The notes: a model not told the origin generated them from the sequence alone. A stretch of 49,342 nucleotides of DNA, filler included, from Jimgerdemannia flammicorona (GCA_003990765.1; 2 parts of 2 records of this genome joined end to end with filler, not necessarily neighbours in it), one strand, 5' to 3'. Shown: positions 1 to 43,866, numbered from the whole stretch's first letter. Translations and numbers: made by a program.

Positions 1-2003
1 ACCCAATCGATCATGGGGTTCTCTTGTTTTAACCATGGAGTTCCAAGGATGATTTCATTGTCAGGAAGTGGTACGATTTGGAGGGTAACATGTACTCGGT
101 AGTTGCCAATTCGGAAGGGTAGATTGCGGACTTCTTTGCTAATAACATGTGAGGTTCCATCTGCTGTAGCAACTGCTTGAGTTTGCTGTACTGGGGAGGT
201 GAAGACCTTGAGTCTGTTGGCTGTCTCCTCATTGATGAAATTGCCTGAGGCACCACTGTCTATCATAATCTTGACAGGTGCTCCGTTGACAAAAGCCTTA
301 AGGGTGAGCAGTTTGTCTGATCCAATAGTGGTGATTTCAGTTGTAGGAGCCTTTCTTCTGTTGGTTCTTCTTTGAGCCAGTTCGTTGACACAAGAGAAGC
401 AATCATCAATCATTCGGGAAGAGTACATTCCAATACCATGAGGGCATCAGCCACTTGGTACATATCCATCTTCTATCTTCTTATAGAATTGCTCTTCTTT
501 GCTTATGGTAGGTTGGGCTGGTGCTTTGTTTGATGAGCCAAATCCTTAGGATCCTCGGATGGTGGGTAGTAGTTCAGGGACTTCCTTGACTGTCAAGGTT
601 GACTCAATTTTTTCGAATAGGATCTGGGCGATGCAGAAACCAATAGGGATCTTGAAGGGTGTCCAACTGTGATTTCGGATGAGGACAATGATTTCGCCTG
701 TATAATCTTCGTCAATGACTCCTCCTTCTACTGAGAGTCCTTTCAGCGCTAGGCTGCTGCAACAGCATATTCTTCCAATATGTCCTTCAGGGATTTGGAT
801 ACTGATTCCTGTAAAGACTTGTTTGACTTCTCAGTTAGAAACTGTAGCTTCTTCAGCTGCATACAGGTCATATCCGGCTGCTTTTTGACTTCCTTTGGTT
901 GGGGCCTTAGCAGTTTGTCTTAACTTGACAAAGTCTAGTATTCTGGTAGTCAGGTTGTTGAGGTGGTGCAGAGTTGTAACAGTTGCTCGTGTTGCTGTTC
1001 GGGGTTTTCGGTTGGGGCAGGCACTGGCCATGTGTCCTGTCTTTCGGCAATAGAAGCACGCTCCGCTTCTTCGAAGTTCATTTCTTTCGCCTTCAGTAAG
1101 TTTCTTGAAGGTACTGGGCTGGGTAGGTTCAGGATTTCTGGGTGTCCACGAGATGGATGTGGAGGGAGCTCGAGATGCTTCATGCTTGGGTTCTTCTTTC
1201 TTGGTCCAAGTCTTTTCCTTGTTGTTGAATTGCCTTCGGGGCAGAATTGGTCCAGCTGTTAGGATTCGCTTGACCATGGTCTTGATTCTTGCTAGGCACC
1301 ATTGTTGGTGGTCACAACCAACTGGGCGGCCTTGTTCTCGGATTTTTCTAGTAAGCCATTCAGGTAGTATATCGAATAAATGGTCTGCTCTTGTACCATT
1401 TCGTGCTTCATCATTGGCAATGTATCCTAGGCCAATAGTGTTCAGGAGTGACTCGAGTTTTGTACAGAAAGTTTCGAATTCTTCCTTGCCATGTACATCA
1501 AATTTGAGGTTGCGGAGTTTTACTCGAGATTCAGCAATCATGGTCTTGCTACGATATTGAGCAATTATGAGTTGTTTGAGTCTAGGGGCTGTAGGACGGG
1601 CTGCATATCCTGGGGCATTGTTTGCTGCATTCTGGGCAACTACTGCAGGTCGGGTATCCTATGTGAGGGGTTTTTCAGGAAGGGTTCACCACCATTCTTC
1701 GGCAGGTCCTCGGAAGAATATAACAACTCAGCAGACATAGGCTGTAGTTGTAGCAAAGAGTTGTTCCAGGGTGTGGTCTTGATTGTTTGTCAGAAAGCGG
1801 TCAGCAACTCGCTCATTGGTCCATTGATTGGCTTCAAAGTTGGTGTCAACTACACTGATGAAGCTTTGGACTTCTTGTGCGGTACCATTGAAAGTAGGTA
1901 GGCTCAGATTTTTGGTAGGTCGGGTCTGTTCAGCTAAGGCAGTAATGGTTGCTGCCATTATAGCTACTTGGGCTGTGAGATCCAGAATCTGTTGGTTCGC
2001 CAT
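1..2003 (-). pseudogene. gag-dUTPase-protease part of the A1 polyprotein, one reading frame with a few in-frame stops
   Basis: ATG 2003 (MANQQ..LPTFNG), ORF 1541-831 and the protease D codon at 260 are all in one frame. Stops at 1728 and 831 are TGA, compatible with CGA deamination. Confidence 0.9.
533..940 (-). pseudogene. dUTPase domain of A1
   Basis: AAGYDL, SSLALKG, GVIDEDYTGEI, IAQILF, RGS*GFGSS correspond to trimeric dUTPase motifs I-V. Confidence 0.93.
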
Positions 2004-2949
2004 GTTGTTGACTGGAGGCGGTTGGACTGCGGGTAGTGGTGTTACTGGTACTACTTGAGGTACTGGTGCAGAGTGTGATGGGGTTCTTTGGGTCTGTGTA
2101 AGTTGCTGGAGTAGTAGTTGTGGATCTGGAGTGAGGGCTTGATAGATGGCTGTTTGTTGCTGTGTAGGTGTATTCTGTCCTGATGGATGTGTGTCTCCTT
2201 CAGTGGTATATCCGGGATCAAATTCAGTGAGATACTCCTCCTCTTCTTCGGTTTGGTCCCCGTGTAATTGGGTTTGCTCGGCGTCAAAGTAGACAGAATC
2301 AGTTGTATATCTGATCTCAGATGGACTTAATTCAAAGTCAAGTTCAGGTTCGGTATTGGTTTCAGATTCAGGTAGGGTTGTAGTAGGGCCTGCTTCAGGT
2401 TCGGGGTTAGGTAGTTGATGAAGGGTTTCTCTTGCTTCTTCTTTAAGGATATGGCGGGCCTTGCTGTTCTGGAATTGGTAGTATAAGGCGGTCTTGGTCC
2501 TGGTGTGGTGAAAGTTGGTAGAGTTAAGCCACTTGGCTATAGAGGCTTGGGCTTCATGAGGAACTAAGGCTAGAAAGACTGCTGCTGGTTACCCTAGGTT
2601 GCTCAGATTTGTAGAGCTGACAAAACTCTTGTTGAGAAGAGTAAAGAAGGCTTCAATAAGACCTTCTTCATCTTGACTTGCTGGGTGTAGTGCAAGGAGT
2701 TCGGTGAATAGGGTTTCGCCTATTTGCTGGTTTAACTTAAGTACTTCTTTCTTTGAATGAAGTTTATCCCACTTGTTGCAGGTGTGGAGGTCAAATTGTC
2801 CTTATACGTCAGGTTCAATTCTCTCCAGATTGTCAGATTGTTCAGATAAATTCTAGTTCAGAGGTTGGGCTTTATACCAACTTGTAGAAATTTGCAAAAG
2901 GGTTTATAGTGGGGTGAGGAAGCGTCTTGAAGTGGAATTGGATTGTAAA

Positions 2950-2961
2950 CCGCTGCTACCA
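2950..2961 (-). promoter_or_regulatory. Primer-binding site, probably tRNA-iMet
   Basis: TGGTAGCAGCGG, 3 nt inside the LTR end; complementary to a tRNA 3' end ...GCTACCA typical of initiator Met tRNA. Confidence 0.8.
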
Positions 2962-3420
2962 AGTTGTAAGAGGGTTACTTTTTAGGGTAACTGTTACATA
3001 GTTCTGGAAAGGTTTTCTGGATATTCTGGATGTTCTGGAAGACCATTTTCTTATGGTCAGGATCAATTTTGTATGGAGTATGTCCTCTACGCTTATTGAT
3101 TTCAAGATTGGGTTGATGTCTCAACCAAAGTCCTTTTCCAGACTAGTTCTGGATGTTCAGGATTTTCCGTATTTCAGGAAGTTCAAGAAACTAAGACCAG
3201 CTTAGTTGAATTGGCGTATCGCTGCAGACAATACTCAATTAGGAAATTTCGTGACAGGGTTAGGAGTGGGACCTAACAGGGAGCAGATTTACTTAAGAGT
3301 GGTTTGTGGGTTATGGAATAGGTTTATTTGCTATTCATGATATTGCTATACTAGGAGTATTTGTGTGAAGGGATATTGTGGGGAAGTGCTCAGGAGTTGT
3401 GTTCGGATTGTTCAAGCCTG

Positions 3421-3490
3421 TTTGAGTCTGTTTGAGTCTGTTTGAGTCTGTTTGAGTCTGTTTGAGTCTGTTTGAGTCTGTTTGAGTCTG
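3421..3490. repeat. (TTTGAGTCTG)7 perfect 10-bp tandem repeat in the LTR, just downstream of the TATA box
   Basis: Seven exact copies; other LTR copies have only 1-2 degenerate units. Confidence 0.97.
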
Positions 3491-3712
3491 TGATTCTGAG
3501 GTCTGGGGGAGGGGGTATTTATACTAGTGAGGGGCTATCTGGACTATGCTAGATATGGATGTAGCACTAAGTGCCTTGCTGAGTTGGAATGCAGTCACAT
3601 AGTACAAGTGTGATCTGACATGTCAAGAGATCATCTGACTGCTGAGTCAGTTCACAGTCATATCATACAAGGCTAATCTAACTATGTTATGACTGCTAGA
3701 CTATTTATAGGT

Positions 3713-4828
3713 TTAGGCACTATCTGGGTAGTCCTCGATGACATCACCATTGATTGTATCATCTCTGATGAAGTAGTCATCTAGGAATAATGGTTCGCGG
3801 ATTACTTCTCCTTGTTGGCTGAGGTAATAATATATTGGAACTTCGTCTCCATCCCACAGGATAGCATCATCTGTTTTGTATGCTGGATAAGGTGTTGGTG
3901 GGCAAAGGATGGGTGTACTGTCTTCACTTTCATCGGATTCGCTATCTGCATACCTTCTATAGGTTACAGTACTATAAGTCGCGGGGTTATAGTAAGCTGG
4001 TGGCTGTGGTTCATGTCGCTCGTACTCGGGTGGTGGAGTGGTTGGTTTGATCTCGAGGGTTGTCTGAAGGTACAGGTTGTGTTCTCCAGTCTCTTCATTG
4101 TAATTGAAGTAATCAGGGGTAAACGCGGGTTGGTATTCGTACCAGTGGTCATTGTCCCAATAAGTCTCGTATGCAGTTATGAACTGTTGTAAGTTCATCG
4201 GCAAGGTTGGCGGAGTGATCAGGGTTGGCAGAGATCCTGGGCTAGAGGTCATGTTGGTGTCAGAGGGATCATTGTCTTCTGCTTCATCTTCATCGAAGTG
4301 GATTATATCGTAGACGTCCTTCATGGTATATCCGACTTGAGGCATTTGCAGGATGTGGTCATCAGGGTGTGGAAAGGTTCTGTCTGTAGTTTCGATGTAC
4401 TCGAGGTACTTGTGGTTGAGTTCTTGTATCATGTCATCAATTTGGCTGTAGGACAGGGTAGCAACCATTTCGCTGGTAGTAACTCAGAGGTGGGGAATAA
4501 AGGCGTTGTACTCGTAGAAGAGTTCTCGATGTTTGCAGGTGATAAGCTTCTGGTGTTGGGATATCTGAGTAAGATCTGTATCATAGTGGTGTTCGACTAT
4601 GTCTTCCAGGAGGCAGCCGATCTGGTAGTAGCTTGAGATTTGTCCGATTCGGTGAGCCTCATTAAGCATGTTCAGGGCATTCCATCGGGCTTCCACGAAG
4701 TAGAGGGGTGCCAGGCTATGGATATTCATGAGGGGCAGAGGGGGTGTGGCTCGGTTGACAATAGCATTCCAAATGTCAGTGCAGATGCGGTTGTAGATCT
4801 CAGTGGTCATGTTTGTGTGTTTGGACAT
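3713..4828 (-). CDS. LTR(U3)-encoded acidic, Pro/Tyr-rich protein of unknown function (~371 aa, one internal TGA at 4484-4486)
   Basis: ORFs 4484..4867 and 3713..4468 are in one frame. The stop is a sense codon (Q) in the 20139-21371 copy. Contains PPEY and PPAY. Confidence 0.75.
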
Positions 4829-5067
4829 TGTGGTTGTTGTTTGTTTTGGTTCTCTGATTCGACACATCTCGGTGCTCGGTATATATGCATTTGGTCCTGA
4901 TTGGTAAGGTTCCGTTTGTGTAGATCTTGTGTTCTGTAACTTCGTATTAACTCAGCTTTGTGCGCTGTGACTTCGGTTTGACTCAGCTTTGTGATCAAGC
5001 AGGTGATTTCCAGATTTGTTCAGAGGGTGATGTATAATTTCGGTGGCTTGGAGGTTGTGCGCTTACA

Positions 5068-8000
5068 AGAACTGACCCATAGACTGACAAGTAGATGCCC
5101 AAGTACTACACTATCTCACTAGTGGGGATGATTGCTCCTATAACTTCTCCTTCCACCAGACCATTGCCTAGCACTATTGTTTCACACTTGTACCAATTCA
5201 GCTTAATCCCAGAGTTCTCCTCATACTATTCCACTGTCTTCTTGAGCTCCTCAATATCAGTAATCGATCACAAACCAATCACCATATCATCTGCAAAGGC
5301 CCCAACTTTCCACCCAATTCTATAGATAGAGAGCCCTGCTATCTTTCACCTAATCCTGTCCATTAGGGGTTCCAGGAAAAGAGCATACAAAATGGGGGAC
5401 AGTGGGTCCCCCTGGGGCACCCTCCTATCCAGAGGGAACACTACCCCTCTATATCTATTACACATGAGTGCAGCCCTACTCCCTTTCAGTAGGCTGACCA
5501 TTATTGATTGAAATTGGCATGGAACCTCCATTCTATCCAATACCTTCACCAGCCAGACTCATTGCACCCAGTCATAAGCCTTCTTCTGGTTTAAGAAGAC
5601 TAGACACCATCCAGTCCACAGGCTCTTGTCCCTTCAATGACTCCATGTACCCAGGCTGTGCCATCTCTGATGAGCCGACCACCAACAAATCCCCTCTGCT
5701 CAATACTTACAACTTACTGGGCCACCTTCTGTAGCCTCATAACCACCACCTTAGTTATTAACTTCCTGTCCATATCAAGCAACATTATCAGCCACCAGTT
5801 CTTCCAATCCTCTCACCTTCCTTTGTTCTTATAAAGCAGTATCACCAGCCCAAGATTCTGCTCCCCCACCCATCTCCCTATCTATAATATAAAGTCACAC
5901 AATGCTGTCATCTCTCTCATCACCTCTGAGACTCCAACCATTCACTTCCAGAAGTCCCAGGGCAGACCATCCTCCCCAGGTGCCATATCTGGGATTGTTG
6001 TGGCAAGAATCTAGTGGATCTCATCTTCCTTTACAGGCATCACCAGGTCACCTAGCCCCTCTACTTATGGTGGGTACCAATCCTCTAATGTTCAGTCAAT
6101 GACAGCAGCATCTGCCCCACCCTCCTTCTCACTCCACAATCTGCTCCATCACTCCTTCAACAATCCAAGAATGCCCTATACACTATACACTAGTACACCA
6201 TCTGAGTCAAGTACCCCCTCCCACTATTGCTGTACCCTCCTTACTCTAAGGGTTCTTATAAGAAACTTGGAAGGCCTCTCCCCTTCCTCCAGCATCTGCC
6301 AATGAAGCCATGCTGCCAAACTTTGCACCCTTGCCTCCTCCTCTTCCTGCAACACCTGTTGTAGTTCTCCAACCTCTCTCTTTGCCCTCATTAATCTCCA
6401 ATCTTTGTCATCCTCCAATATTGCCAGTCTCACCCACTCCTCCAGAAGTCTAGCCAATCTAGTAGAAACCCAACATACTCTTTGCCTTCTCTGCTTCCCT
6501 ACCTCCTTGCCAGCCTCACTCCAGTAAATCTTGGCCATCTCTTTCATCCTCATCTATCAAACCTCGATTGAGGTGCCTTTCTGTTACCAGTTCTTCACCC
6601 TCAGCTGAATATCTCTAGTCTACTCATCCCACTAGAACTTGTCATCTAATAAAGAGGAATTTAGGCACCAATGTCAAGGTCCATCCCCACTTCCCCCAAA
6701 GCACCCTTATCCCAAAAGGCCCCAGTGATCTGACCATGGGCACTATTCCACCTCCAGTGACTTTCAAACATCTAGGCCCCAGCAACTGACTGTTAGAATC
6801 CAGTTGATCCTTGTCTCCAGGCTCTCAGCCCAATGCATATAAACCCTCCTATCCCCCCAGTACTCTCTACCCACATCTACCAGTATACTTAGTCTTTCTA
6901 CTTCCTCCCACATTGCCAGCCCCCCACTCCTGCTCTCAGCACCTCATCCTCCATCTATTCTATCCTTTAGTATATCCCGAACCATGTTGAAATCTCTCCC
7001 AAGCATATCTACCCCAGCCTCAGCAAGGATCTCACTCTTCTGGAGATCCTTCACCCAATCCACCTGCTCACCCCAGACAGCAGAGCAGTAACAAGAGCCA
7101 ACTGTAACTGGCTCCCAGCCTGCATGAATCCACTCACCCCAGACCAGTCTCTCCTCTCAGCTCCTCACATCCCTTATCTCCCCTCTGCCTTTCCGAATCA
7201 GAATCCCAACCTTGCCTTTCCAAATCACCATGCCTCCCCATTTCTTAGTCCATTCCATTCTATCAGAATTATCCTCACACCTGACATCCTGCAAGAGGAA
7301 GAGATCGGCCTCCAATCCCTTCAGCCAAGTAAAAATGTTCCTACATCTAGCAGTGCCCCATAACCCATTCATGTTTAAAGAAAAAATGTTAGTTGTACTG
7401 TTCATAATGAAATACATTTTGTTATCAGTCTATCTCTACTGCTCTATGTTCATCTCCTCCTGTGCCATGTCCAGATTATGTTCTGCTATTACCTCCTCCT
7501 CTTCAGCCCTCTGAGCCTCTAATCTAGCCAACAGCTCATTTATCTCCCCATCCACCTTCTCCTCAAACTCCTCCTGATACTCTATGCAAGCCTCCTGCCA
7601 AAGCTGCAATCCATGGTACTTATTTCAGTAGTATTCAGCCCTCTCTCCAGTGATCACCACCATCTCTGCCTCCTGCTCCTTGTTCACCTCATACCCCTCC
7701 TCCTTCAGATATACTGCAAGAATTTCTACCTTTAGTACTATCATCACTCCATCCCCTTGCAATATCTGTGCCCAGTGCTTATCACCCATTATTCTCAAGT
7801 CCACCTCCCCCAACTTTTCTGCTGTCAGGTTGTTCATCATCCTGTACATTCAAAGTAGGTTCCCCACCTCCTTCCCTCCAGGGGTCACTGGCCTCCCTCT
7901 ATCCAGTATTGTGGTGTCAACCCCAGTACTTGCAACCTCATCCCATACCTCCAGGATATCCACTAGTTCCTCCTCTCTGGCTGCCACCACACATCCCCCA

Positions 8001-11106: not shown

Positions 11107-13145
11107 TGTAAGAGGGTTGCTTTTTAGGGTAACCATTACGTAGTTCTGGAAAGGTTTTCTGGATATTCTGGATATTCTGGATATTCTGGAAGACCGTTTT
11201 CTTATGGTCAAGATCAATTTCGTATGGAGTACGTCCTTTATGCTTATTGATTTCAAGATCAGGTTGACATCTCAACCAAAGTCCTTTTTTTTTCAGACTA
11301 GTTCTGAATGTTCAGGATTTTCCATATTTCAGGAAGTTCAAGAAACTAAGACCAGCTTAGTTGAATTGGCGTATCACTGCAGACAATACCCAATTAGGAA
11401 ATTTCATGATATGGTTAGGAGTGGGACCTAATGGGGAGCAGATTTACTTAAGAGTAGTTTGTGGGTTATTTAATAGGTTTATTCGCTATTTATGATATTG
11501 CTATACTAGGAGTAGTTGTGTGAAGGAATATTGTGGAGAAGTATTCAGGAATGTTGTTGTGTGTTCGTGTCTGAGATTCTGAGGTCTGGGGAAGGGGGTA
11601 TTTATACCAGTGAGGGGCTATCTGGACTATACTGAATATGGATGTAGCACTAAGTGCTTTGCTGAGTCGGAATGCAGTCATGTAGTACAAGTGTGATCTG
11701 ATATATCAAGAGATCATCTGCTGAGTCAGTTCACAGTTACGTCATACAAGGCTAATCTAACTATACTATGACTGCTAGGCTATTTATAGGTTTAGGCACT
11801 GTCTGGGTAGTCTTTGATGACATTACCATTGATTGCATCATCTCTGATGAAGTAGTCATCTAGGAAGAGTGGTTTGTGGATTACTTCTCCTTGTTCACTG
11901 AGGTAATAATATATTGGAACTTCATCACCATCCCACAGAATAGCATCATCTGTCTCATATGTTGGATAAGATGTTGGTGGGTAAAGGAGGGGTGCATCAT
12001 CTTCACTTTCATCAGATTCACTGTCTGCATACCTTCTGTAGGTTACAGCACTATGAGTCACAGGGTTGTAGTAAGCTAGTGGCTGTGATTCATATCACTC
12101 ATACTCGGGTGGTGGAGTGATTGGTTCAATCTCGAGAGTTGTCTGGAGGTACAGATCGTGTTCTCTGGTCTCTTCATTATAGTTGAAGTAATCAGGAGTG
12201 AATGTGGATTGGTATTCATATCAGTGGTCATTGTCCCAATAAGTCTCATATGCTGTTATGAATTATTATAAGTTCATCAGCAAGGTTAGCGGTGTGATTA
12301 GAGTTGGCAGAGATCCTTGGCTAGAGGTCATGTCAGTGTCAGAGGGATCATTATCTTCTGCTTCATCTTCGTCAAAGTGGATTATATCATAGATGTCCTT
12401 CATAGCATATCTGACTTGGGGCATTGCAGGATATGATCATTGGGGTGTGGGAAGGTTCTATCTGTGGTTTCGACATACTCGAGATACTTGTGGTTGAGTT
12501 CTTATATCATGTTGTCGATTTGGCCATAGGATAGGATAGCAATCATTTTGGCTGTAGTAACTCAGAGGTGGGGAATAATAGTGCTATACTTGTAGAAGAG
12601 TTCTCGATGTTTGCAGGTAATGAGCTTCTGGTGTTGAGACATCTGGGTAATGTCTGTATCATGGTGGTGTTCAATCATGTCTTCTAGGAGGTGGCTAATC
12701 TGGTAGTAGCTTGAGATTTGTCCAATTCAGTGGGCCTTACTAAGTATGTTCAGAGCATTCTATCAGACTTCTATGAAGTAGAGGGGTGCTAGGCTATAGA
12801 TATTCATGAGGGGCAGAGGGGGTGTGGCTCTATTGACAATGGTATTCCAAATGTCAGTGTGGATACAGGTATAGATCTTAGTGGTTATGTTTATGTGTTT
12901 GGAAGTTGTGGTTATTGTTTGTTTTGGTTCTCTGATTCGATGTGTCTCAGTGCTCGGTATATATACATTTGATCCTAATTGGTAAGATTCCGTTTGTATA
13001 AATCTTGTGTTCTGTGACTTCATATTGACTCAACTTCATGATCAAGCAAGTGATTTCCAGATTTGTTCAGAGGTCATGTGTGATTTCAGTGGCTTGTTCA
13101 GAGGGTGACATGTAATTTTGGTGGCTTGGAGGTTGTGTGCTTACA
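11107..13145 (-). repeat. 3' LTR of A2, with a decayed U3 ORF
   Basis: TGTAAG..CTTACA; ORF remnants 11792..12061 and 12763..13023 match the U3 protein. Confidence 0.95.
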
Positions 13146-13159
13146 ACTCTCCCCTTCTT
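13146..13159 (-). promoter_or_regulatory. Polypurine tract
   Basis: AAGAAGGGGAGAGT immediately before the 3' LTR TG; same tract at 30891-30904 in A3. Confidence 0.88.
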
Positions 13160-13355
13160 AGCTTTCAATATCCTCATTGGGGCCTTCTAATTTTGTTCAG
13201 TACTATAGGGAAAATAGGCTTGCTTTCAGTTTTGCCATTTTTTCCAGAGGGTCAGTATTCTTGTCTTGTTTTTTGCTGAGTTCTTGGTTTGCAATAATTA
13301 TAATGTTCGGAAGGATAATATATAGTATGTATGGATAGGTGCAGAGTATTTGGTT

Positions 13356-16300
13356 CTAGTTGTTTGAGGAATCATATTCCTGAACTAGGTTAGTAGCATT
13401 CTGGAGATTGGTCTTGGGTTCCCAGGTTGCATCGTAGATCGGATAACCTTTCCATTTGACAAGATACTTAGGGTGGCTCTTGTTGCCACATTTGTTGAGG
13501 ATTTGTTCAACTTCGTACTCTTCTTGGTCATTAATAATGACAGGTGCAGGTGGTTTGGTGGTCTGGTTTGGAAATAGCTCATCATCATTCTCATTATATC
13601 ACTTGAGACGTTGAACATTAAAGACTGGGTGAATCTTAATGGTGTCTGGTAGCACCAATTTGTAGGAGATTGAAGAAACTTGTACAATAACTTCAAATGG
13701 TCCAATGAACTTGCTGTTCAGCTTTGTAGATGGTCTGTGCTTGAGGTTGTTAACTCGGTATCCTCTAATGTCTAGTAGAACTTTTTCTCCAATATCAAAG
13801 ATTTCTTCTTGGCGGTGTTGGTTAAAATACTGTGACTGTTGTTCTTGAGCTCATGATAAATTCTCAATAGCAATCTGGCTTAGATTGTACATTCAGAGTA
13901 AGAATTCTTCAACAGCTTTGACTGTGGAGGGTTCTTCAGTGGTTTGGATAAGTGTCAAAGGGGCATTTGGATTTTGTCCAGTATTGGCGAAGAATGGGGT
14001 CATTCTGAAAGAGGCTTGCTTGCTATTGTTATAGGTAAACTCAACTGTGGTAAGGTGTTCATGCCAGTCATCTTGTCTGTAGGAAATATAGTTCCTTAGC
14101 ATTTGTTCTAGAGTTCAGTTCATTCTTTCAGTTTGGCCATTAGTTTCCGGGTAAAAGACTATAGATAGTGCAAGTTTTGTTCCAAGGTATGTATGGAGGG
14201 CTTTCCAAAATGGCTGGTGAATTTCGGGTCTCGGTCATTAACAATGATCTTGAGAAGACCATGATAGTAGAAGATGTTGTCAAACAAGAGTGTGGCTATG
14301 TCTGGTGCTATTGCAGTAGTGGTAGTAGATACAAAGTGGGCTTGTTTGCTGAAATAGTCCATAAAGACAACAATTGCATCTTTCCTATTCTTGGTTTGGG
14401 GTAGTTGTACAATGAAGTCTATAGAGATTTGTTCCCAATTAGCAGATGGTACTGGGATAGGGTGAAGTAAGCTGGGTTTTGCTAGTGTTGAGGACTTGTT
14501 TCATTGGTAGGCATCACAGGAAGTGATATAGGTTTTGAGCTAATCTGCCATGTGGGGCCAATAGAAGTTTTGGGAGATAACTTCATAATATTTATTAAAT
14601 CCTAAATGTCCAGCTATAGGGGCATTATGACATTCAAATAGGATAGTTCTTCGGAGGTCTCAGTTGTTTGGGACATACAGTCTGTCTTTGTAGTAGATAG
14701 TATTATCCTTCAGTTGGTATTGATGATACTGTGTATGCTTGTCGGCATTGTCACTATTCAGAATTTCTCACAGTGCTTGAGCTTCCTTATAATTGGCACA
14801 TGCTGTGATAATTTGTTCCATGATGGAGTTTGTAACCAAGGTGAGAGTTTGGATAACCTCTTCGATTGGTGGTCTGGAGATTGCATCGGCAACAATATTT
14901 TCCTTGCCAGGGCAGTACTGGATTTAATAGTCAAAGTTGGTGAGGACTTTCATCCATCTGGCTTGCTTTCAAGAAAGGGTAGCCTATGTCTTGATATTGA
15001 CTAATAATTTGTGGTCAGTCAATATAGTGAAGTGTGCTCTTTCTAGGTAGAGTCGCCATTTGATCAGAGTATCTACGATGGCTAGCATTTCCTTCTCGTG
15101 GGTTGCATAGTTAATTTCAGCATCATTGAACTTGCAGGAGTGATAGGCCACAGGGTGTCCTTCTTGTATGAGTACTGCTCCAAGGGCTAGGTCAGAGGCA
15201 TCAGTGGTAACTTCATATAGCAGTACAGGGTTTGCCACTTGAAGTACTGGAGTGGTTATCAGGGCATCCTTTAGTGCTTGAAAGGTGGTATCTTGCTCAG
15301 ATCCCCAAGTTACAAGATTGTTGAAGTCTTTTTCTTGTTTTATGGTCCAGGGTTGTTCTTGTTTCTTGTTATGCTTGATCATTTGGGTGAGGGCAGTAGT
15401 GATTTTAGCAAAGTTGGCAACAAATCACCTGTAATAGTTTGCTAATCCCAGAAATGACTGGAGGTCTTTCAGCTTCTTAGGTCTGGGCCAATCCTTGATT
15501 GTGGAGATTTTGCTTAGGTCTACTTTGATTTCATTTGGAGTGACAATGTGTCTAAGGAATTGAATTTCTTTCAGGAGAAATTCGCACTTGCTGAGTTTTG
15601 CAAAGAGTCGGTTTTCTCAGAGTTTTAGTAGTACTAGTTCAAGGTGTTCAAGATGTTCCTTCAGAGTTTTGCTAAAGATTAGGATGTCATTAATGTAGAC
15701 AATAATGAATTTGTCCAGATATGGATATAGAATGGTATTCATCAGTATCTAGAAGGTTGCTGGAGCATTAGTTAAGCCAAAGGGCATAACCAGGAACTCA
15801 AAGTGTCCATAGCGAGTTTGGAAAGCTGTCTTGTAGATATCTTCTTCTTTCATAGCAATTTGCTAGTAACCATTTTACAGGTCAAAGGAGCTCATGAATT
15901 GCAGGTTGGTGAGCCTATCGAATATTTCATCGATCCTTGGTAGTGGGCAACAGTTCTTGATGGTCTATTCATTGAGATTGTAGTAGTCAATACACATTTA
16001 CAGATCTCTTCCTTTTTTGACAACAAATAGGACTGGTGCACCATAAGGTGATATGCTGGGTCTGATGAATCCTTGTTCTAGGAGTTTGTCAATTTCTTTC
16101 TTGAGTACATCAATTTCTCTTGGAGACATGTGGTAGATTGACTTGAAGGTTGGTTTGGCATCTGGGATGGTCTTGATGGCATGGTCTACTGCTCATTTAG
16201 GAGGTAGGCCTTTTGAGAGTTTCTTTGGAAATATGTCTCAAAATTTCTAGAGTAGTGGTCTGACATGGCTGTCAACTTTGGAAAAATCTTCTTCAGAGTT

Positions 16301-18487
16301 CTCAGGTTCTCCTTTAGATGGATGGATGGAGATGGCAAAGAGAGGGCATTTCTTAGTCAATTTCTTGAGTTGTAGTTTGTTGATGTGGGTGATCTTTGGT
16401 CTAGGGTCACTAAAATTAAGTAGGTCCTTTTCACCTTGCAGTTTGAAGTTGTGGCGTTCTTTCTTGATGGTCAGAGAATGGTTTACCCAATCGATCATGG
16501 GGTTCTCTTGTTTTAACCATGGAGTCCCAAGGATGATTTCATTATCAGGAAGTGGTACGATTTGGAGAGTAATATGTACTTGGTAGTCACCAATTTGGAG
16601 GGGTAGATTGTGGACTTCTTTGCTAATATCATGTGAGGTTCCATCAGCTGTAGCCACTGCTTAAGTTTGCTGTACTGGAGAGGTAAAGACCTTGAGTCTG
16701 TTGGCTGTTTCCTTATTGATAAAGTTGCCTAAGGCACCACTGTCTATCATAATCTTGACAGGTGCTCAGTTGACGAAAGCCTTAAGTGTGAGCAGTTTGT
16801 CTGATCCAATGGTAGTGATTTCAATTGTAGGAGCTTTCCTTCTATTGGTTCTTCTTTGAGCCAGTTCATTGACACAAGAGAAGCAATTATCAATCATTTG
16901 GGAAGAGTACATTCCAATGCCATGGGGACATCGACCACTTGGTACATATCCATCTTCAATTTTCTTATAGAATTATTCTTCTTTGTTCATGATAGGTTGG
17001 GCTAGGGCTTTGTTTGATGAGCCAAATCCTTTGGATCCTCAGATGGTAGGTAGTAGTTCAGGGACTTTCTTGACTGTCAGGGTTGACTCAATTTTTTCAA
17101 ATAGAATCTGGGCAATACAGAAACCAATAGGGATCTTGAAGGGTATCCAACTGTGGTTTTGGATGAGGACAATAATTTCACCTGTGTAATCCTCATCAAT
17201 GACTCCTCCTTCTACTAAGAGTCCTTTCAATGCTAGGCTGCTGTGACAGTATATTCTTGCAACATGTCCTTCAGGGATTTGGATGCTGATTCCTGTATAG
17301 ACTTGTTTGACTTCTCAGTTGGAAACTGTAGCTTCTTCGGCTGTATACAGGTCATATCTAGCAGCTTTCTGACTTCCTTTGGTTGGGGCCTTAGCAGTTT
17401 GCCTTAGCTTGACAAAGTCTAGTATTCTGGTGGTCAGGTTGTTGAGGTGGTGCAGAGTGGTAACAGTTGCTCATATTGCTGTTCAGGGTTTTCGGTTAGG
17501 GCAGGCACTGGCCATGTGTCCTGTCTTTTGGCAATAGAAGCATGCTCCACTTCTTCGAAATTTGTTCCTTTCACCTTCAGTAAGTTTCTTGAAGGTACTT
17601 GGCTGGGTGGGTTCATGATTTCTAGGTATCCAAGAGGTGGATATAGAGGGAGCTTGGGATGCTTCATGCTTGGGTTCTTCTTTCTTGATTCAAGTCTTTT
17701 CCTTGTTGTTGAATTGTCTTTGGGGCAGAATTGGTCCAGCTGTTAGGATTCACTTGACCATAGTCTTGATTCTTACCAGGCACCATTGTTGGTGGTCACA
17801 ACCAACTAGACAGCTTTGTTCTTAGATTTTTCTAGTAAGCCATTCAGGCAGGGCATCAAATAAGTGGTCTGCTCTTGTACCATTTCATGCTTCATCATTG
17901 GCAATGTATCCTAGGCCAACAGTCTTCAGGAGTGACTTGAGTTTTGTATAGAAGGTTTCAAATTCTTCTTTGCCAAGTATATCAAATTTGAGGTTACAGA
18001 GTTTTACTCGGGATTCAGCAATCATGGTTTCACTGCAGTATTGAGCAATCATGAGTTGTTTGAGTCCAGGGGCTGCAGGATGGACTCTATATCCTGGGGC
18101 ATTGTTTGCTGCATTCTGAGCAACTACTGCAGATCAGGTATCCTATGTGAGGAATTTTTCAGAAAGAGTTCACCACCATTCTTTGGCAGGTCCTCAGAAG
18201 AATATAACAACTCGGCAGATATAGGCTGTAGTGATACCAAAGAGTTGTTCCAGAGTGTGGTCTTGATTGTTTGTCAGAATGCAGTTAGCAACTTGCTCAT
18301 TGGTCCATTGATTGGTTTCAAAGTTGGTGTCAACTATACTAATGAAGCTTTGGACTTCTTGTGCAGTACTATTGAAGATAGGTAGGCTCAGATTTTTGGT
18401 AGGTCAGGTCTGTTCAGCTAAGGTAGTAATGGTTGCTGCCATTATGGCTATCTGGGCTGTGAGTTCTAGAATCTGTTAGTTTGCCAT
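13356..18487 (-). pseudogene. gag-dUTPase-PR-RT-RNaseH-integrase-chromodomain polyprotein pseudogene of A2
   Basis: RT ([25 protein letters not shown]), RNase H (TTDASDLALGAVL, HEKEMLAI), IN (CHNAPIAGHLG, NDRDPKFTS, NGQTER), GPF motif, chromodomain (EYEVEQIL..YLVKWKGY..TWEP). Confidence 0.95.
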
Positions 18488-19448
18488 ATTATTTACTAGA
18501 GGTGGTTGGACTACTGGTAGTGGTGTTACTGGTACTACTTGAGGTACTGGTACAGAGTGTGATGGGGTTCTTTGGGTCTGTGTAAGTTGCTGGAGTAGTA
18601 GTTGTGGGTCTGGAGTAAGGGCTTGATAGATAACTGTTTGTTGCTGTATAGGTGTATTCTGTCCTGATGGAGGTACTTCTCCTTTGGTGGTATATCCGGG
18701 ATCAAATTCACTGAGATACTCCTCCTCTTCTTCGGTTTGGTCCTTGTGTAATTGGGTTTGCTTGGCGTCAAAGTAGATAGAATCAGTTGTATATCTGATT
18801 TCAGATGGACTTAATTCAAAGTCAAGTTTAGGTTCGGTATTGGTTTCAGATTCAGGTAGGGCTGTAGCAGAGCCTGCTTCAGGTTCGGAGTCAGGTAGTT
18901 AATGAAGGGTTTCTCTTGCTTCTTTTTTAAGAATATGGTGGGCCTTGCTGTTCTGGAATCGATAGTATAATGTAGTCTTGGTCCTGGTATGGTGAAAATC
19001 AGTAGAGTTGAGCCACTTGGCTACAGAGGCTTGGGCTTCGTGAGAAACTAAGGCTAGAAAGACTGCTGCTGGTTGTCCTAGGTTACTCGGGTTTGTGGAG
19101 CTGACAAAACTCTTATTGAGAAGAGTAAAGAAGGTTTCAATAAGACCTTCTTCATCTTGACTTGCTGGATGTAGTGCAAGAAGTTCAGTGAATAGAGTTT
19201 TGCCTATTTGCTAGTTTAACCGGAGTACTTCTTTCTTTGAATGAAGTTTATCCCACTTGTTGCAGATGTGGAAGTCAAATTGTCCTTATACATCAGATTC
19301 AATTTTCTCCAGATTGTCAGATGGTTCAGATAAATTCCAGTTCAGAGGTTGGGCTTTATACCAACTTATAGAAATTCGCAGAGGGGTTTGTAGCAGGGTG
19401 AGAAAGCATCTTGAAGTGGAATTGGATTGTAAACCACTGCTACCAAGT

Positions 19449-21493
19449 TGTAAGAGAGTTGCTTTTTAGGGTAACTGTTATGTAGTTCTGGAAAGGTTTT
19501 CTAGATATTCTGAATATTCTGGATATTCTGGAAGACTGTTTTCTTATGGTCAAGATCAATTTTGTATAGAGTACATCCTCTATGCTTATTGATTTCAAGA
19601 TCAGGTTGACATCTCAACCAAAGTCCTTTTTTTTTTTAGACTAGTTCTGAATGTTCAGGATTTTTCATATTTCAGGAAGTTCAAGAAACTAAGACCAGCT
19701 TAGTTGAATTGGCATATCACTGCAGACAATACCCAATTAGGAAATTTCATGATATGGTTAGGAGTGAGACCTAATGGGGAGCAGATTTACTTAAGAGTAG
19801 TTTGTGGGTTATTTAATAGATTTATTCGCTATTCATGATATTGCTATACTAGGAGTAGTTATGTAAAGGGATATTGTGGGGAAGTATTCAGGAATGTTCT
19901 TGTATATTCAAGTCTGAGATTCTGAGGTCTGGGGAAGGGGGTATTTATACTAGTGAGGGGCTATCTGGACTATACTGAATATAGATGTAGTACTAAGTGC
20001 TTTGCTGAGTTGGAATATAGTTATATAGTATAAGTGTGATCTGATATATCAAGAGATCATCTGACTGCTAAGTCAGTTCACAGTCATGTCATACAAGACT
20101 AATCTAACTATACTATGACTGCTAGGCTATTTATAGGTTTAGGCACTATCTGGGTAGTCTTCAATGATATCACCATCAATTGCATCATCTCTGATGAAGT
20201 AGTTGTCTAGGAAGAGTGGTTCGTGGATTACTTCTCCTTGTTTACTGAGGTAATAATACATTGGAACTTCATTACCATCCCACAGAATAGCATCATCTGT
20301 CTCATATGCTGGATAAGGTGTTGGTGGGTAAAGGAGGGGTGCATCATCTTCACTTTTATTAAATTTGCTGTCTGCATATCTTCTATAGGTTACAGTACTA
20401 TGAGTCACAGAGTTGTAGTAAGCTGGTGGCTGTAGTTCATGTTGCTCATACTCAGGTGGTGGAGTGGTTGGTTCAATCTCGAGGGTTGTCTGGAGGTACA
20501 GGTCGTGTTCTCTGGTCTCTTCATTGTAGTTGAAGTAATCGGGAGTGAATGCAGATTGGTATTCGTACCAGTGGTCATTGTCCCAATAAGTCTTGTATGC
20601 TGTTATGAATTGTTGTAAGTTCATTGGCAAGGTTGGCAGTGTGATCAGGGTTGGCAGAGATCCTTGGCTAGAGGTCATGTCGGTGTCAGAGAGATTATTG
20701 TCTTCTGCTTTATCTTCATCGAAGTAGATTATATCGTAGATATCCTTCATGGTGTATCCAACTTGGGGCATTTGCAGGATATGATCATTGGGGTGTGGAA
20801 AGGTTCTATCTGTGGTTTTGACATACTCGAGGTACTTGTGGTTGAGTTCTTGTATTATGTCGTCGATTTGGCCATAAGATAGAGTAGCAATCATTTCAGC
20901 TGTGGTAACTTGGAGGCAGGAAATAATGGTGCTATACTCATAGAAGAGTCCTCGATATTTGTGGGCAATGAGCTTCTGGTGTTGAGACATCTGGATAATG
21001 TCTGTATCATGGTGGTGTTTGATCATGTCTTCCAGGAGGCAGCTGATCTGGTAGTAGCTTGAGATTTGTCCAATTCAGTGGGCCTCACTAAGCATGTTCA
21101 GAGCATTCCATTGGGCTTCCATGAAGTAGAGGGGTGCTAGGCTATGGATATTCATGAGGGGCAGAGGGGGTGTGGCTTTGTTGACAATAGCATTCCAAAT
21201 GTCAGCGCAGATATGGATATAGATCTCAGTAGTCATGTTTGTGTGTTTGGAAGTTATAGTTGTTGTTTGTTTTAGTTCTCTAATTTGATGTGTCTCAGTA
21301 CTCGGTATATATGCATTTGATCCTGATTGGTAAGATTCCGTTTGTGTAAATCTTATGTTCTGTGACTTCATATTGACTCAGCTTCATGATCAAGCAGGTG
21401 ATTTCCAGATTTGTTCAGAGATTGTGTGTAATTTCAGTGGCTTGTTCAGAGGGTGACATGTAATTTCAGTGGCTTAGAGATTGTGTGCTTACA
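19449..21493 (-). repeat. 5' LTR of A2
   Basis: TGTAAG at 19449, CTTACA at 21493; PBS TGGTAGCAGTGG adjacent. Confidence 0.95.
20139..21371 (-). pseudogene. Second copy of the U3-encoded acidic protein (one stop at 21075)
   Basis: ORFs 21075..21371 and 20139..21026 are in one frame and align along their length to 3713-4867. Confidence 0.75.
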
Positions 21494-24622: not shown

Positions 24623-24722
24623 NNNNNNNNNNNNNNNNNNNNNNNNNNNNNNNNNNNNNNNNNNNNTTAATTAATTAANNNNNNNNNNNNNNNNNNNNNN
24701 NNNNNNNNNNNNNNNNNNNNNN
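24623..24722. other. Assembly gap: 44 N + TTAATTAATTAA six-frame stop linker + 44 N
   Basis: Directly visible. Confidence 0.98.
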
Positions 24723-25736: not shown

Positions 25737-26376
25737 CTGGTAGAGGGTGGGGTAGTATAGGGACTGGTGTTCTGGCTGTACCCAACTGGAACTGGGAGCT
25801 GATGTAGCAATGCAATCAAGGCCTGTAGACTTGGGGAGTGGGGCCTTCCTTATTTAGCAGTATCTGACTGGAACCGGGAGCTGACACAGTAACATAATTG
25901 AGGCCTACAAGCTTGGGGAGTGGGAGTGGGGTCTTTTCCAGCCCTAGCCTATGTGTAAGTCCTTTGAGGAAGGTGCTGCATATAAGTCCTTTACTCATCT
26001 ACTTTGAATCTACTTTGCTCTTTGTTGGTTAGTTGAGGGGTTTTTTCTTTGCCTCAGGCTTTCTTTTGGAGTTTGGGGGGCTATTCTTTATTCAGTCCTA
26101 GTACTGCTAGATCTGATGCATAGGTGTGCTCTCACATGTAAATGATGATCCAGTCCTGGTGAGCAGACAAGTCTAGTATATGTCATGGAGTTGATGTAGC
26201 CAGTGTTTGACAGGTATAGCTGAAGCAGTGGGACTGCTGGACAATTTAGTAGCCTAGGTTAATGGGAGATATTGTTCAGTAAGTGGTGGGAGAGAGTTTT
26301 GGCCTATATAGTCTAGATTCTCTTCTAATAAAAATCTGCAGGACTATGAGTCTATTAAAAAAAAAAAAAAAAAAAA

Positions 26377-29300: not shown

Positions 29301-32300
29301 CATCCTGAGCTCCCTCAACATCCACCTCATGAACACTCAGAAATCATAAACCTACTCAGCCAAGTACCTTCAAGAAACTCACTGAAGGAGAAAGAAATGA
29401 ACTTTGAAGAAGTGGAGTATGCTTCTATTGCTGAAAGACAGGACATATGACCAGTACCTGTCCGAACTGAAAACCCTGAACAGCAATATGAGCAACTGTT
29501 ACTACCCTGCACCATCTCAATAACCTGATCACCAGAACACTGAACTTTATCAAGTTAAGACAAACTGCTAAGGCCCCAAGCAAAGGAAGTCAAAAGGCAG
29601 CTGGATATGACCTGTATGCAGCTGAAGAAGCTATAGTTTCCAACCAAGAAGTTAAGCAAGTCTATACAGGAATCAGTATCCAAATTCCTGAAGGACATAT
29701 TGGAAAAATATACTATTGCAGCAGCTTAGTATTGAAAGGACTCTCAGTAGAAAGAGGAGTCATTAATAAAGATTATACAGGTGAAATTATTGTTCTCATC
29801 CAAAACCATAGTTGGACACTCTTCAAAATTCCCATTGATTTCTATATTACTCAGATCCTATTTGAGAAAATTAAATCAACTCTGATAGTCAAGGAAGTCC
29901 CTAAACTACTACCTACTATCTGAGGATCCAAAGGATTTGGCTTATCAAGCAAGGCCTCAGCCCAACCTACTATGAACAAAGAAGAACAATTCTATAAGAA
30001 AATCAAAGATGGATATGTACCAAGTGGCCAATATCTCATGGCATTGAAATATACTCTTTTCAAATAATTGACAATTGCTTCTCTTATATCAATTAACTGG
30101 CTCAAAGAAGAACCAACAGAAGAAAAGCTCCTACAACTGAAATCACTACCATTGGATCAGACAAACTGCTTACACTTTAAGCTTTTGTCAACTGAGCATC
30201 TGTCAAGATTATGATAGACAGTGGTACCTCAGGCAACTTCATCAATAAAGAAACAGCCAACAGACTCAAGGTCTTTATCTCTCTGATACAACAAACTCAA
30301 GCAGTTGTTACAGCTGATAGAATCTCACATATTATTAGCAAGGAAGTCTGCAACCTACTCTTCCAAATTAGTGACTACTGAATATATGTTACTCTCTAGA
30401 TCATACCACTTTCTGACAATGAAATCATCCTTGAGACTCCATGGTTAAAACAAGAGAACCCCATGATTAATTGGGTAAACCATTCTCTGACCATTAAGAA
30501 AGAATATCACAACTTCAAACTGTAAGATGAAAAGGACCCACTCAGCTCTAGTGATTCTGAATTAAAGATCACTCACATCAACAAGCTACAGCTCAAAAAA
30601 TTGGCCAAGAAATGTCCTCTCTTTGCTATCTCTATCTGTCCATCCAAAGAAGAACCCGAGATCTCTAAAAAAGACTTTTCCAAAGTTGACAGCTGTGTTA
30701 GACCTCTACTCCAGAAAGTCCAAGACATATTTCTGAACTGAACTACAGAACCACCTGCACCTGTCATTATTAATGACCAAGAAGAATACAAAGTTGAATA
30801 AATCCTCAACAAATACAGCCACAAGAACTATCCAAATAGTACAACAATACTAGATCAAATTAGAAGGTCTCAATGAAGATGTCAAAAGCTAAGAAGGGGA
30901 GAGTTATAAGTACACAATCTCTAAGTTACCAAAATCACATATTATCCTCAGAACTAATTTGGAAACCATATGCAAGACTACAAAATAAGTTACTGAAGAG
31001 ATCATCTGATTACACAAAATATGTCAGCAAGTATGAGAACCTACTGCCAAGATACAAGAATACCAGAAGAAGTACTACAACTGTAAGACTAACTCTGAAC
31101 CTCTATAACTAGTTTAGTATACTGTACTATTACAAAAGAAAACTGAAAGTACCAAAATCAAACCAAGATAAGAAGAACCCTATCTTATCCATCAAAGGGC
31201 ACTTATCAACTTAAGATCAAAATATACTGCAACTATATAAGATCTCATTATTTAGCAAAAGTAAAATATATTTGAACAACTCTATTCGCTCTATCTGTGT
31301 CATCTCTGTTAGAGAGTGATGGATGCTTCATCTAAACTCAAGAAAGTCAACATTATTGAAACTAATCTCAAGCTATCCACGTGATAGATATTACTACTAG
31401 AAATTGTCTCAGATTATAGAAAATATCATTTCCAAGAGGTTTGAATTCCCAGCCATAATATTAAAAGCCCTTGCCCTAGACAAGAATGGCCAGTCCTCAC
31501 AAATATATCAGAAGTTTAAAAAAAAAAGAGAACCAAGACCTGTTATTCTTATACAACTACTGCCACCAAGGACAGTCTTAATCTTGCAAGAGATAGAAGT
31601 GACAATATCTTTAAAACTGATGATATCAGAAGTCAGAAAATTGCTCAGACTTTATCAGAGATAATGTTATCAATAGTGATGTTATTAAAGACTAACCAGA
31701 TAGTATCTAAATCTATAAATAGCTTAGCAGTTATAGTATAGTTAGATTAGTCTTATATGATATAACTGTGAACTAACTCAGCAATCAGACAATCCCTTAA
31801 CATATTAGATCACACTTATACTATATGACTGCATTCTGACTCAGTAAGGCACTAAGTACTATATTCATATTCAGCATAGCTCAGATAGCCCCTTACTAGT
31901 ATAAATACCCCCTCCCCCAGACCTTAGAATCTCAGACTTGAAGACTTGAATAATCTGAACACAACTTCTGAGCACTTCCCCACAATATCCCTTCACACAA
32001 CTACTCTTAGTATAGTAATATCATGAATAGCGAATAAACCTATTTAATAACCCACAAACCACTCTTAAGTAAATCTACTCCCCATTAGGTCCTACTCCTA
32101 ACCCTATCATGAAATTTCCTAATTAGATATTGTCTACAGTAATATACCAATTCAACTGAGCTGGTCTTAGTTTCTTGAACTTCCTGAAATATAGAAAATC
32201 CTGAATATCCAGAACTAGTCCAAAAAGGGACTTTGGTTGAAATATTAACCCAATCTTGAAATTAATAAGCATAGAGGATATACTCTATATGAAATTGATC

Positions 32301-32396
32301 TTGACCTTAAGAAAATGGTCTTCCAGAATATTCTGAACTTCTAGAAAACTCTTCTAGAACTATATAATGGTCACTCTAACAAGTAACCCTCTTACA
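26377..32396 (+). mobile_element. Gypsy family A copy A3: truncated 5' LTR (to 27513), gag-dUTPase-PR (28476-~30500), RT/RH/IN deleted, 3' LTR 30905-32396
   Basis: Reverse-complement homology to 1-3730; junction from the RT start to EPPAPVIIND at ~30740; PPT; CTTACA end. Confidence 0.92.
26543..26965. mobile_element. hAT-type MITE / foldback element inserted in the A3 5' LTR
   Basis: 8-bp TSD GCACTAAG (26535-26542, 26966-26973); TIRs TAGTACTTCCAACAAA / TTGTTTGGGAGCACTA; empty site at ~31849. Confidence 0.92.
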
Positions 32397-32644
32397 AAAG
32401 CCCAAGAAGGGTATGTTAAGTACTAGCAAATAGTGATTTTTGAGATAGAAATAGGTCAGGAACAAAATCTTTCCAATGATTAATATCACTTTATATATAT
32501 ACTATAAATTTTGTAAAAAAATTATCTAAAACAAATAAAATTCATATTATATATATAAAGCCCAGATGCTGCTTTATTAAATAAAATATAGAGTATAATT
32601 ATATTCATATTTAGACCATAATATATTGTCTCTTATTATATATT

Positions 32645-33110
32645 TATTAAGATCTCCTTTACTATCTTTTCTTTATCATCTTTATACCTTTTGCTATCTT
32701 TAACTCATTTATTATTTTCTATTTATTATTTTTAATCTGTTTACTATCTTCTCTTTGCTATTTTTAACTTATTCTTTACTGAGATCTCCTTTGCTGTCTT
32801 TTCTTTACCATTTACCATCTTTGACCTATTTGCCATCTTCTATTTACTGTCTTTAACTCATTTACCATTACTGTCTTTAACTTATTCACTATTACTATCT
32901 TTAACTCATTCACTATCTTTAACTTATTTGCTATCTTTGTCTCATTCACTATCTTTTCTTTGCTGTCTTCACTAAGATTCTCTTTTTTATCTTCTCTTCA
33001 CTGTCTTTAACTTGTTTATCATCTTTACTAAGATTCTCTTTATTGTCTTTCTGTCTTTATATCCTTTACTATCTTCAATTAATCTTACTATCTTCTCTTT
33101 ACCATTTATT
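32645..33110. repeat. Degenerate pyrimidine-rich minisatellite (TTTACTATCTT / ACTGAGATCTC-type units)
   Basis: Many recurring ctttactatcttt and tttgctatctt motifs. Confidence 0.85.
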
Positions 33111-43776: not shown

Positions 43777-43866
43777 ACTGTATGACCACCAGACAGTCTC
43801 TCCGCTCACCGTGACGTGTTCATCTTCTCTCTCAGCCACCCCCTTGATACACAAAACAACACAACC

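Follow-up and report, generated by a model that had tools for sequence, protein, structure and literature searches.

A probable accessory gene wholly inside the U3 region of a chromovirus-type Ty3/Gypsy retrotransposon in Jimgerdemannia flammicorona

Extra genes of LTR elements and the U3 frame of family A

Extra genes are the least understood part of the biology of long terminal repeat (LTR) retrotransposons. Among retroviruses, mouse mammary tumor virus (MMTV) carries in the U3 of its LTR the superantigen open reading frame (ORF) sag, which is expressed from a spliced mRNA, and, as in betaretroviruses generally, has a dUTPase between gag and protease. The foamy-virus genes tas/bet and the human immunodeficiency virus (HIV) gene nef are 3' accessory genes that start upstream of the LTR and overlap U3, and foamy viruses drive their 3' accessory genes from an internal promoter. 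We know of wholly or partly U3-encoded genes from retroviruses alone (MMTV sag and, in part, nef and foamy-virus bel). Here we describe a stretch of 49,342 nucleotides, filler included, from Jimgerdemannia flammicorona (GCA_003990765.1; two parts of two records of this genome joined end to end, not necessarily neighbours in it), hereafter the window, in which a sense ORF of 365-371 codons covers ~70% of the U3 and recurs in each of the three full LTR copies of an LTR retrotransposon family, here named family A. We consider it probable that this U3 ORF, which lies wholly inside U3, is a genuine accessory gene, specific to its lineage and belonging to a chromovirus-type Ty3/Gypsy element.

By analogy, the nearest layout is that of MMTV sag, and the nearest in logic would be foamy-virus tas/bet and HIV nef, none of them apparently homologous. 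Like sag, the U3 ORF is a long sense frame occupying most of an unusually long U3, hence carried by both LTRs and 3'-terminal in the genomic RNA, and element A also has a dUTPase between gag and protease. Unlike MMTV, element A is a chromodomain Ty3/Gypsy retrotransposon without env; the Pfam, PDB and fold searches described below found no sequence or fold relation to sag, and expression from a spliced mRNA, demonstrated for sag, would be a conjecture for the U3 ORF. With tas/bet and nef the ORF shares the position of 3'-end accessory regulators reaching U3, and the internal promoter of foamy viruses has a possible counterpart in a candidate TATA-like box at 4886-4879. Unlike those genes, it lies wholly inside the LTR, past the polypurine tract (PPT), and no homology to them was found.

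Within LTR retrotransposons, the retrieved sections of PMC7264820 and PMC5408684 describe extra ORFs (aORF or ORF3) in the plant elements Grande (gene23), RIRE2 and Retand, in Boty of Botrytis, and in the bdelloid elements Vesta, Juno and TelKA (ORF3). According to the same sections they are located internally, either upstream of gag or in the stretch from pol to the 3' LTR; the bdelloid ORF3s are typically separate transcription units with spliced messages, and bdelloid LTRs measure 159-551 bp. As described there, these are family-specific, often orphan genes beside gag and pol, as the U3 ORF would be, but the latter is not in the internal region and begins 257 nt inside the LTR. An ORF inside the LTR is thereby present in two copies per element and once in every solo LTR. 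Closer in type are the dUTPase-bearing fungal chromoviruses, such as PosPlaTy3, Phanerochaete elements and Tuber Tmt1, which according to the retrieved part of PMC2864245 are chromodomain Ty3/Gypsy elements with a dUTPase near the protease; in a figure legend of that article some fungal elements are given an "add. ORF" whose function is not known, whereas its retrieved text places no ORF inside an LTR. The crapaud LTR subfamilies of Podospora differ mostly in the LTR's 5' half (retrieved part of PMC10787394), which also varies between the ORF-bearing A LTRs and the LTR of a sister element, B, but that part of the article describes no coding capacity for the variable region. The retrieved full-text literature on LTR-internal ORFs was retroviral (MMTV) or irrelevant, and the "add. 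ORF" figure of PMC2864245 may bear on the point.

To the extent of the searches made, an orphan accessory gene in this position is apparently undescribed for LTR retrotransposons. A selected gene wholly in U3 would be duplicated in each element, survive in the solo LTRs left when recombination removes the element, and adjoin the promoter that it possibly regulates. Its presence in a dUTPase-bearing chromovirus, if true, would be a striking convergence and a tractable case for the acquisition and expression of accessory genes.

Coding status of the U3 frame

Two copies of family A, A1 and A2, lie on the minus strand of the window. A sequence-only reading of this locus had claimed that a single sense ORF fills most of the U3 in three LTR copies and encodes a protein of ~370 residues starting at 4828. 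The frame was found in all three copies and is indeed 371 codons long from 4828 to 3713; the start, by contrast, had to be moved. The ATG at 4828, which adds 6 codons, is private to A1, since both A2 copies read ACT at this place. Public runs holding parts of the family A LTR are mostly labelled soil metagenome, and among the four whose contigs were compared (X1, X2, X13 and X14), X1, guessed to be DNA, also reads ACT, in 723.8 of 727.8 depth units. These comparisons identify the ATG at 4810 as the conserved start, at which the environmental relative P0003, introduced below, also begins. In A1 the ORF so defined has 365 codons and runs on the minus strand from 4810 to a TAA at 3715-3713 (3713..4810), between the LTR start at 5067 and the TATA boxes at 3709 and 3523, ending 3 nt before the first TATAAATA box. 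An extension of pol into the LTR was ruled out, because in-frame stops precede the ORF in every one of the three copies.

Each copy is broken in a different way, by C-to-T or G-to-A changes at CpG. A1 has an in-frame TGA at codon 115 (4484..4486, minus strand); the copy in the A2 5' LTR (20139..21236, minus strand) has a single TGA at 21077-21075, codon 60 in the 371-codon numbering of A1; and the remnant in the A2 3' LTR (11792..12887, minus strand) is interrupted by 5 or more stops and a 1-nt deletion and reads ATA in place of the start codon. The codon of the A1 stop reads TGA in the A2 3' LTR too and CAA in the A2 5' LTR. P0003 has Arg at this codon and at that of the A2 5' LTR stop, so that the ancestral codon at the A1 stop would have been CGA (Arg), and the simplest history is one CGA that decayed three times at its CpG. 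The claim that the stops at 4484 and 21075 fall at different codons, and that the ancestor was open, is thereby borne out, each of the two stops being a CGA changed to TGA. Between the two A2 LTRs all 119 differences in the ORF codons are transitions (119/119), concentrated at CpG and CpA/TpG, and the CpG count of the ORF is 36 in A1 and 13 and 9 in the two A2 LTRs; the decay of the A2 LTRs looks like methylation-linked hypermutation or hypermutation of the repeat-induced point mutation (RIP) type.

One alternative is that the ORF is a functionless chance or relic frame, long because the sense strand is rich in A and C and poor in G, in a region kept as cis-regulatory U3 DNA. The composition of that strand (34% A, 28% C, 16% G) fits this explanation, as do the absence of any homologue of known function, the lack of a confident fold and the fact that all copies in the window are dead. 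One of 2000 mononucleotide shuffles did reach 255 codons. The frame is nevertheless longer than chance predicts: without a stop, the sense strand reads for up to 256 codons in A1 and up to 311 in the A2 5' LTR, while 251 codons were reached by only 1/2000 mononucleotide shuffles of the A1 LTR and by 0/2000 first-order Markov simulations.

Substitution patterns speak against chance. Because both LTRs of an element are identical at insertion, the differences that the two A2 LTRs have since accrued on the same codons supplied a neutral control. The branch from A1 to the A2 ancestor has 50 synonymous and 37 non-synonymous changes, against 42:75 in this control (Fisher p = 0.0028), and the test is conservative because the A1-A2 branch also includes A1's own neutral decay. 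The corresponding dN/dS ratio (omega, NG86), a check of the kind that the sequence-only reading had called for, favoured the gene within the window, being 0.17 in frame against 0.38 in the neutral control, and the synonymous excess is frame-specific, with 0.82 and 3.6 in the other two frames.

Further evidence came from two environmental proteins. A HMMER search of 1.84 billion representatives returned two true relatives, P0002 and P0003, plus three chance matches, and a word-indexed search of 5.8 billion clusters returned P0002 at near lengths and P0003 at shorter ones. The chance matches (P0004-P0006, E = 6e-8 to 3e-4) are long tandem-repeat proteins with 5-10 repeated matching stretches, which inflate the scores; among them, P0006 is a substrate of bacterial type IX secretion, and the Pfam sums of P0005 are numerous and spurious. 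P0003 (128 aa, from a 1,180-bp metagenome contig) is identical to A1 at 111 of 128 residues, starts at the Met matching 4810 and is open across the A1 stop, a point against a chance frame. P0002 (247 aa, from a 998-bp contig) is identical at 167 of 250 positions (67%) over A1 residues 121-370, with two 2-residue gaps, both in frame, and a C-terminus at the same place. When the A1 codons were mutated neutrally to 67% identity, the frame stayed open in 1.3-2.9% of cases (1000 runs per setting). Among the replacements that separate P0002 from A1, 41/80 (51%) are BLOSUM62-positive, against 29-31% on average and a maximum of 48% in 1500 simulations conditioned on an open frame, so that the replacements were more conservative than in 1500/1500 simulations, again contrary to the chance explanation. 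Conditioning on an open frame removes the bias from databases that hold called ORFs alone. No DNA of related loci was found in the metagenome contigs or viral contigs searched.

Variation among the soil-run copies points the same way. In the contigs of the four runs, 14 of the 21 best-supported ORF variant sites (drawn from 40 of the 457 variant rows) fall at third codon positions, against a neutral baseline of 39% (binomial p = 0.011), an excess that also argues against chance. Indels and joints in these contigs occur at ~7 separate loci, of which 2 lie in the ORF; at one of these 2, a single contig has a +1/-1 pair spaced by 3 nt. Such numbers are too small to support a claim. Given these results together, we regard a chance or relic frame as very unlikely.

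Codon usage bears on a different alternative, in which a host gene or fragment was transduced into U3 and is a passive passenger, conserved only through its host copy. LTR retrotransposons do capture cellular sequences, according to the retrieved part of PMC7264820, and in sister element B the corresponding part of U3 is occupied by another insert. However, the codon usage of the ORF resembles that of the element's gag-pol (r = 0.72) and not that of the window's two host genes (r = 0.41 and 0.23); no cellular homologue was found among the 1.84 billion representatives or the 5.8 billion clusters; and the ORF is entire, having a start and a stop codon of its own, and has been retained across LTR copies ~12-14% apart. 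Passive capture of host sequence therefore appears most improbable.

Several observations weigh against a gene all the same. The three ORF copies within the window are dead, and many soil-run copies carry nonsense changes at CGA codons; in X1, for example, the first base of the Arg-271 codon (4018) is T in 163.5 of 289.9 depth units. The selection signal within the window is of moderate strength and could be skewed by the hypermutable CpG context. Outside relatives number two, called proteins on short contigs that may or may not belong to LTRs, from protein databases that hold called ORFs alone and so favour open copies; P0002 begins at Met-121, so that the N half is documented only within family A. 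The complete LTR of element B has no such ORF, which may therefore be dispensable in cis. A structure prediction of low confidence (mean pLDDT 32 over the full length) would fit disorder but would equally fit a non-protein, and the expression and function of the ORF are inferred from sequence.

Each of the five lines in favour of coding (the branch test with its neutral control, P0003, P0002, the variant sites and codon usage) is moderate alone, and all of them agree. By these comparisons the ORF was open in the ancestor, and purifying selection acted on its protein during diversification of the family. We thus take the U3 ORF to be protein-coding with reasonable, though not full, confidence, in keeping with the original proposal of a genuine U3 protein.

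Predicted product and its possible role

The ORF protein matches no described family by the comparisons made. Pfam gave no family for the whole ORF protein, the C half or P0003; no PDB sequence matched the ORF protein below E = 0.33; and the C half had no usable match in the ESM Atlas. Together with the two relatives among 1.84 billion representatives, this agrees with the initial impression that the protein belongs to no recognised Ty3/Gypsy family. Since the protein is an orphan, any function found for it would be new. ESM Atlas matches of P0003 (score 0.90-0.93) were rejected, as they share 131-155 features, below the 170 of a true family, and belong to unrelated families. An origin from the element's own gag was likewise rejected, there being no similarity between the two (best E = 0.25 and 7.2).

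Models of the product suggest a helical N part of ~110 residues followed by a very acidic C part of ~250 residues, with no confident fold. AlphaFold gave the N-terminal 128 residues four helices, with a predicted local distance difference test score (pLDDT) of 54.9 and a predicted template modelling score (pTM) of 0.48. A Foldseek comparison of this N-domain model with the PDB, which the sequence-only reading had recommended, returned no fold match (best E 1.3, TM <=0.34, all generic helical bundles). The C half (residues 121-371, 251 aa) has a net charge of -41, with 10% Tyr, 14% Phe/Trp/Tyr and 11% Pro. P0002 has a composition of the same character, and it shares with A1 short conserved blocks in which Tyr, Phe, Pro, Asp and Glu abound, as in FPHPDDHILQMPQV, FTPDYFNYNE.TGEHNLYLQTT, PPTPYPAYK and EPLF.D.YFIRDD. 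Neither a DNA-binding domain nor a basic patch or nuclear localisation signal was recognised in the ORF protein by Pfam and composition, and no transmembrane segment was evident by eye, no tool-based search having been made.

The product would most likely be a trans-acting adaptor or regulator, neither enzyme nor structural protein, serving the element through short linear motifs. The U3 of the 3' LTR belongs to the genomic RNA, so the ORF would be its 3'-terminal cistron and, as such, would need its own shorter message for translation. This could be a subgenomic spliced mRNA, or a message starting from the TATA-like ATATATAC upstream of the ATG and ending at the LTR poly(A) signal. The ATATATAC box (4879..4886, minus strand) lies 69 nt 5' of the conserved ATG and is kept in all three LTR copies, and may be considered a candidate promoter for the ORF. 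Contigs of runs X13 and X14, guessed to be RNA, have high depth at 3104-3387 and low depth across the ORF, but nothing was drawn from this, as regions cannot be ranked by contig depth and R-U5 is shared by related families.

How such a regulator might act can be imagined in more than one way. The two PPxY motifs could make it an adaptor that recruits an Rsp5/Nedd4-type ubiquitin ligase through its WW domains, as the sequence-only reading had suggested. PPEY (residue 266) and PPAY (residue 276) are present, as claimed, in both A1 and the A2 5' LTR copy, PPPEY is also encoded in the DNA of the A2 3' LTR, and the motifs lie in a proline-rich, acidic segment without confident structure, where PPxY motifs usually sit. 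In the A2 3' LTR, however, the second site reads QPLAY, and P0002, the sole diverged relative, keeps neither motif (PLSEY and QPLAY, 0/2), although neighbouring blocks are well conserved; the PPxY sites lie outside the conserved blocks. The loss in P0002 could be copy decay, because Pro-to-Leu/Ser changes are of the C-to-T type. Even so, the absence of conserved PPxY motifs from P0002, an outcome that the sequence-only reading had named as refuting, weakens the idea of Rsp5 recruitment, and there seems little chance that it is correct.

The acidic, aromatic C half could instead activate transcription from the downstream LTR promoter in the manner of foamy-virus Tas, with the helical N part providing the targeting. 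Consistent with this, the C half carries its net charge of -41 over 251 residues with 14% Phe/Trp/Tyr, acidic-hydrophobic clusters such as EPLF.D.YFIRDD are retained in P0002, and two TATAAATA boxes stand directly downstream of the gene. Against it stand the failure to recognise a DNA-binding domain, basic patch or nuclear localisation signal, the weakness of composition as an argument when taken alone, and the N-domain model, with its pLDDT of 54.9 and best Foldseek E of 1.3. We consider this activator role quite unlikely.

A bolder extension would make every LTR, solo LTRs included, a self-contained gene, in which ATATATAC drives the ORF, the LTR poly(A) signal ends the message and the protein acts in trans. 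The acidic protein would then, for example, activate the TATAAATA promoter directly downstream, or counter silencing, family-wide. If true, a fungal LTR retrotransposon would possess a Tas-like regulatory gene whose dosage scales with LTR copy number; we think this unlikely.

Element anatomy, sister element B and other features of the window

The LTR limits proposed from the sequence (TG..CA ends, PPT, primer-binding site (PBS) plus a GTAGT target-site duplication) were all located in A1/A2. The family A LTR is ~2.05-2.10 kb long and ends in TGTAAG...CTTACA. The A1 5' LTR (2965..5067, minus strand; 2,103 bp) has these ends and is followed, after 3 nt, by the PBS TGGTAGCAGCGG (2950..2961, minus strand), its internal part running from 2964 down to 1 and off the window. 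A2 is a complete element (11107-21493, minus strand) with a 5' LTR at 19449..21493 and a 3' LTR at 11107..13145, both on the minus strand; the 3' LTR has the PPT AAGAAGGGGAGAG (13147-13159, minus strand) before it and the target-site duplication after it. The 5-bp duplication, ACTAC (GTAGT on the plus strand), flanks A2 at 21498-21494 and 11106-11102. The A1 LTR contains, on the minus strand, a first TATAAATA box at 3702..3709, 3 nt past the stop codon of the U3 ORF, a second at 3516..3523, and an AATAAA poly(A) signal at 3323..3328 within R/U5. The genomic RNA is probably transcribed from the second box, in which case the U3/R border would fall near 3490. Directly past it, near the presumed transcription start, lies a tandem repeat, (CAGACTCAAA)x7 (3421-3490, minus strand), which is present only in A1 and skipped by contigs of other runs.

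Pfam gave the internal domain order as CCHC zinc knuckle, dUTPase, aspartic protease, RVT_1, RNase H, integrase, Tf2-type SH3 and chromodomain. E-values were 5.7e-20 for the dUTPase (PF00692), 1.5e-14 for an RVP-type protease in A1, 2.6e-26 for RVT_1, 9.2e-30 for RT_RNaseH_2, 7.5e-16 for Chromo and 6.7e-4 for rve, the last under the cut-off in the decayed copy. In A1 the dUTPase domain lies on the minus strand at 546-830, with its start in 831-905, between the CCHC knuckle (~1011-1061) and the protease (3-446). The decayed internal region of A2 (13146..19448, minus strand) contains the protease (16247-16660), reverse transcriptase (RT; ~15400-16297), RNase H (14984-15424), integrase (14159-14500) and the SH3-like domain with the chromodomain (13150-14159). 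Direct TG...CA LTRs, a PBS, a PPT, a 5-bp duplication and the order protease-RT-RNase H-integrase-chromodomain are all those of Metaviridae and, because of its internal domain set, element A is classified as a chromovirus-type Ty3/Gypsy retrotransposon carrying a dUTPase. Between the PBS and the CCHC-bearing part of gag, a frame of ~356 codons (1728-2801, minus strand; one stop at 2588) has an acidic stretch and no Pfam match, and may be the N part of gag or another leader ORF.

Sister element B lies on the plus strand, with LTR remnants at 26374-27516 and 30905-32397 and an internal region 86% identical to A2 over 3.8 kb. Its 3' LTR (30905..32397, plus strand), the sole complete B LTR, shares with family A the first 50 nt, the TATA boxes and R-U5, but keeps only the last 18 codons of the ORF (31651-31704), the rest being replaced by an unrelated stretch of 0.7 kb (30955-31648). 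There was no sign that this U3 is a decayed ORF: neither nucleotide nor purine/pyrimidine-coded comparison found similarity, the scores lying within those of shuffles. Comparison of the A and B LTRs thus identifies the 5' half of U3 as a variable module of the family. The B 5' LTR is cut at 26376 by an insertion ending in a 20-nt poly(A) run (26356-26375) and also holds a palindromic insert of ~410 bp (26555-26965) resembling a miniature inverted-repeat transposable element (MITE).

Insertions probably also mark LTR copies outside the window. In two runs of "organism B", contigs break at LTR places 3092, 3623, 4174 and 4906 into one common foreign sequence, which holds TTTAGAAACTAGAAC in one orientation or the other and is probably the terminus of a different mobile element, inserted repeatedly into LTR copies. 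A1 itself sits inside an element resembling a long interspersed nuclear element (LINE; 5068 to ~8300, minus strand), with the RT motif AFADDMVIG at ~5300-5274 and an endonuclease-like ORF at 7157-7417, and a 78%-identical piece of the same LINE-like kind lies at 39410-39538.

The remainder of the window contains an AT-rich block at 32400-38000 (24-28% GC), where tandem repeats of ~162-333 bp occupy 34317-35111 and long frames of low complexity lie at 36408-37576. Assembly gaps of 44 N each are at 24623-24666 and 24679-24722. Two apparently intronless host genes, both with 50-58% GC, lie towards its end: one at 43786-45303 on the plus strand, with BTB/POZ (6.3e-21) and SPRY (5.4e-7) domains, and one of 741 residues at 46925-49150 on the minus strand, with a weak F-box-like match (3.1e-4, under the cut-off).

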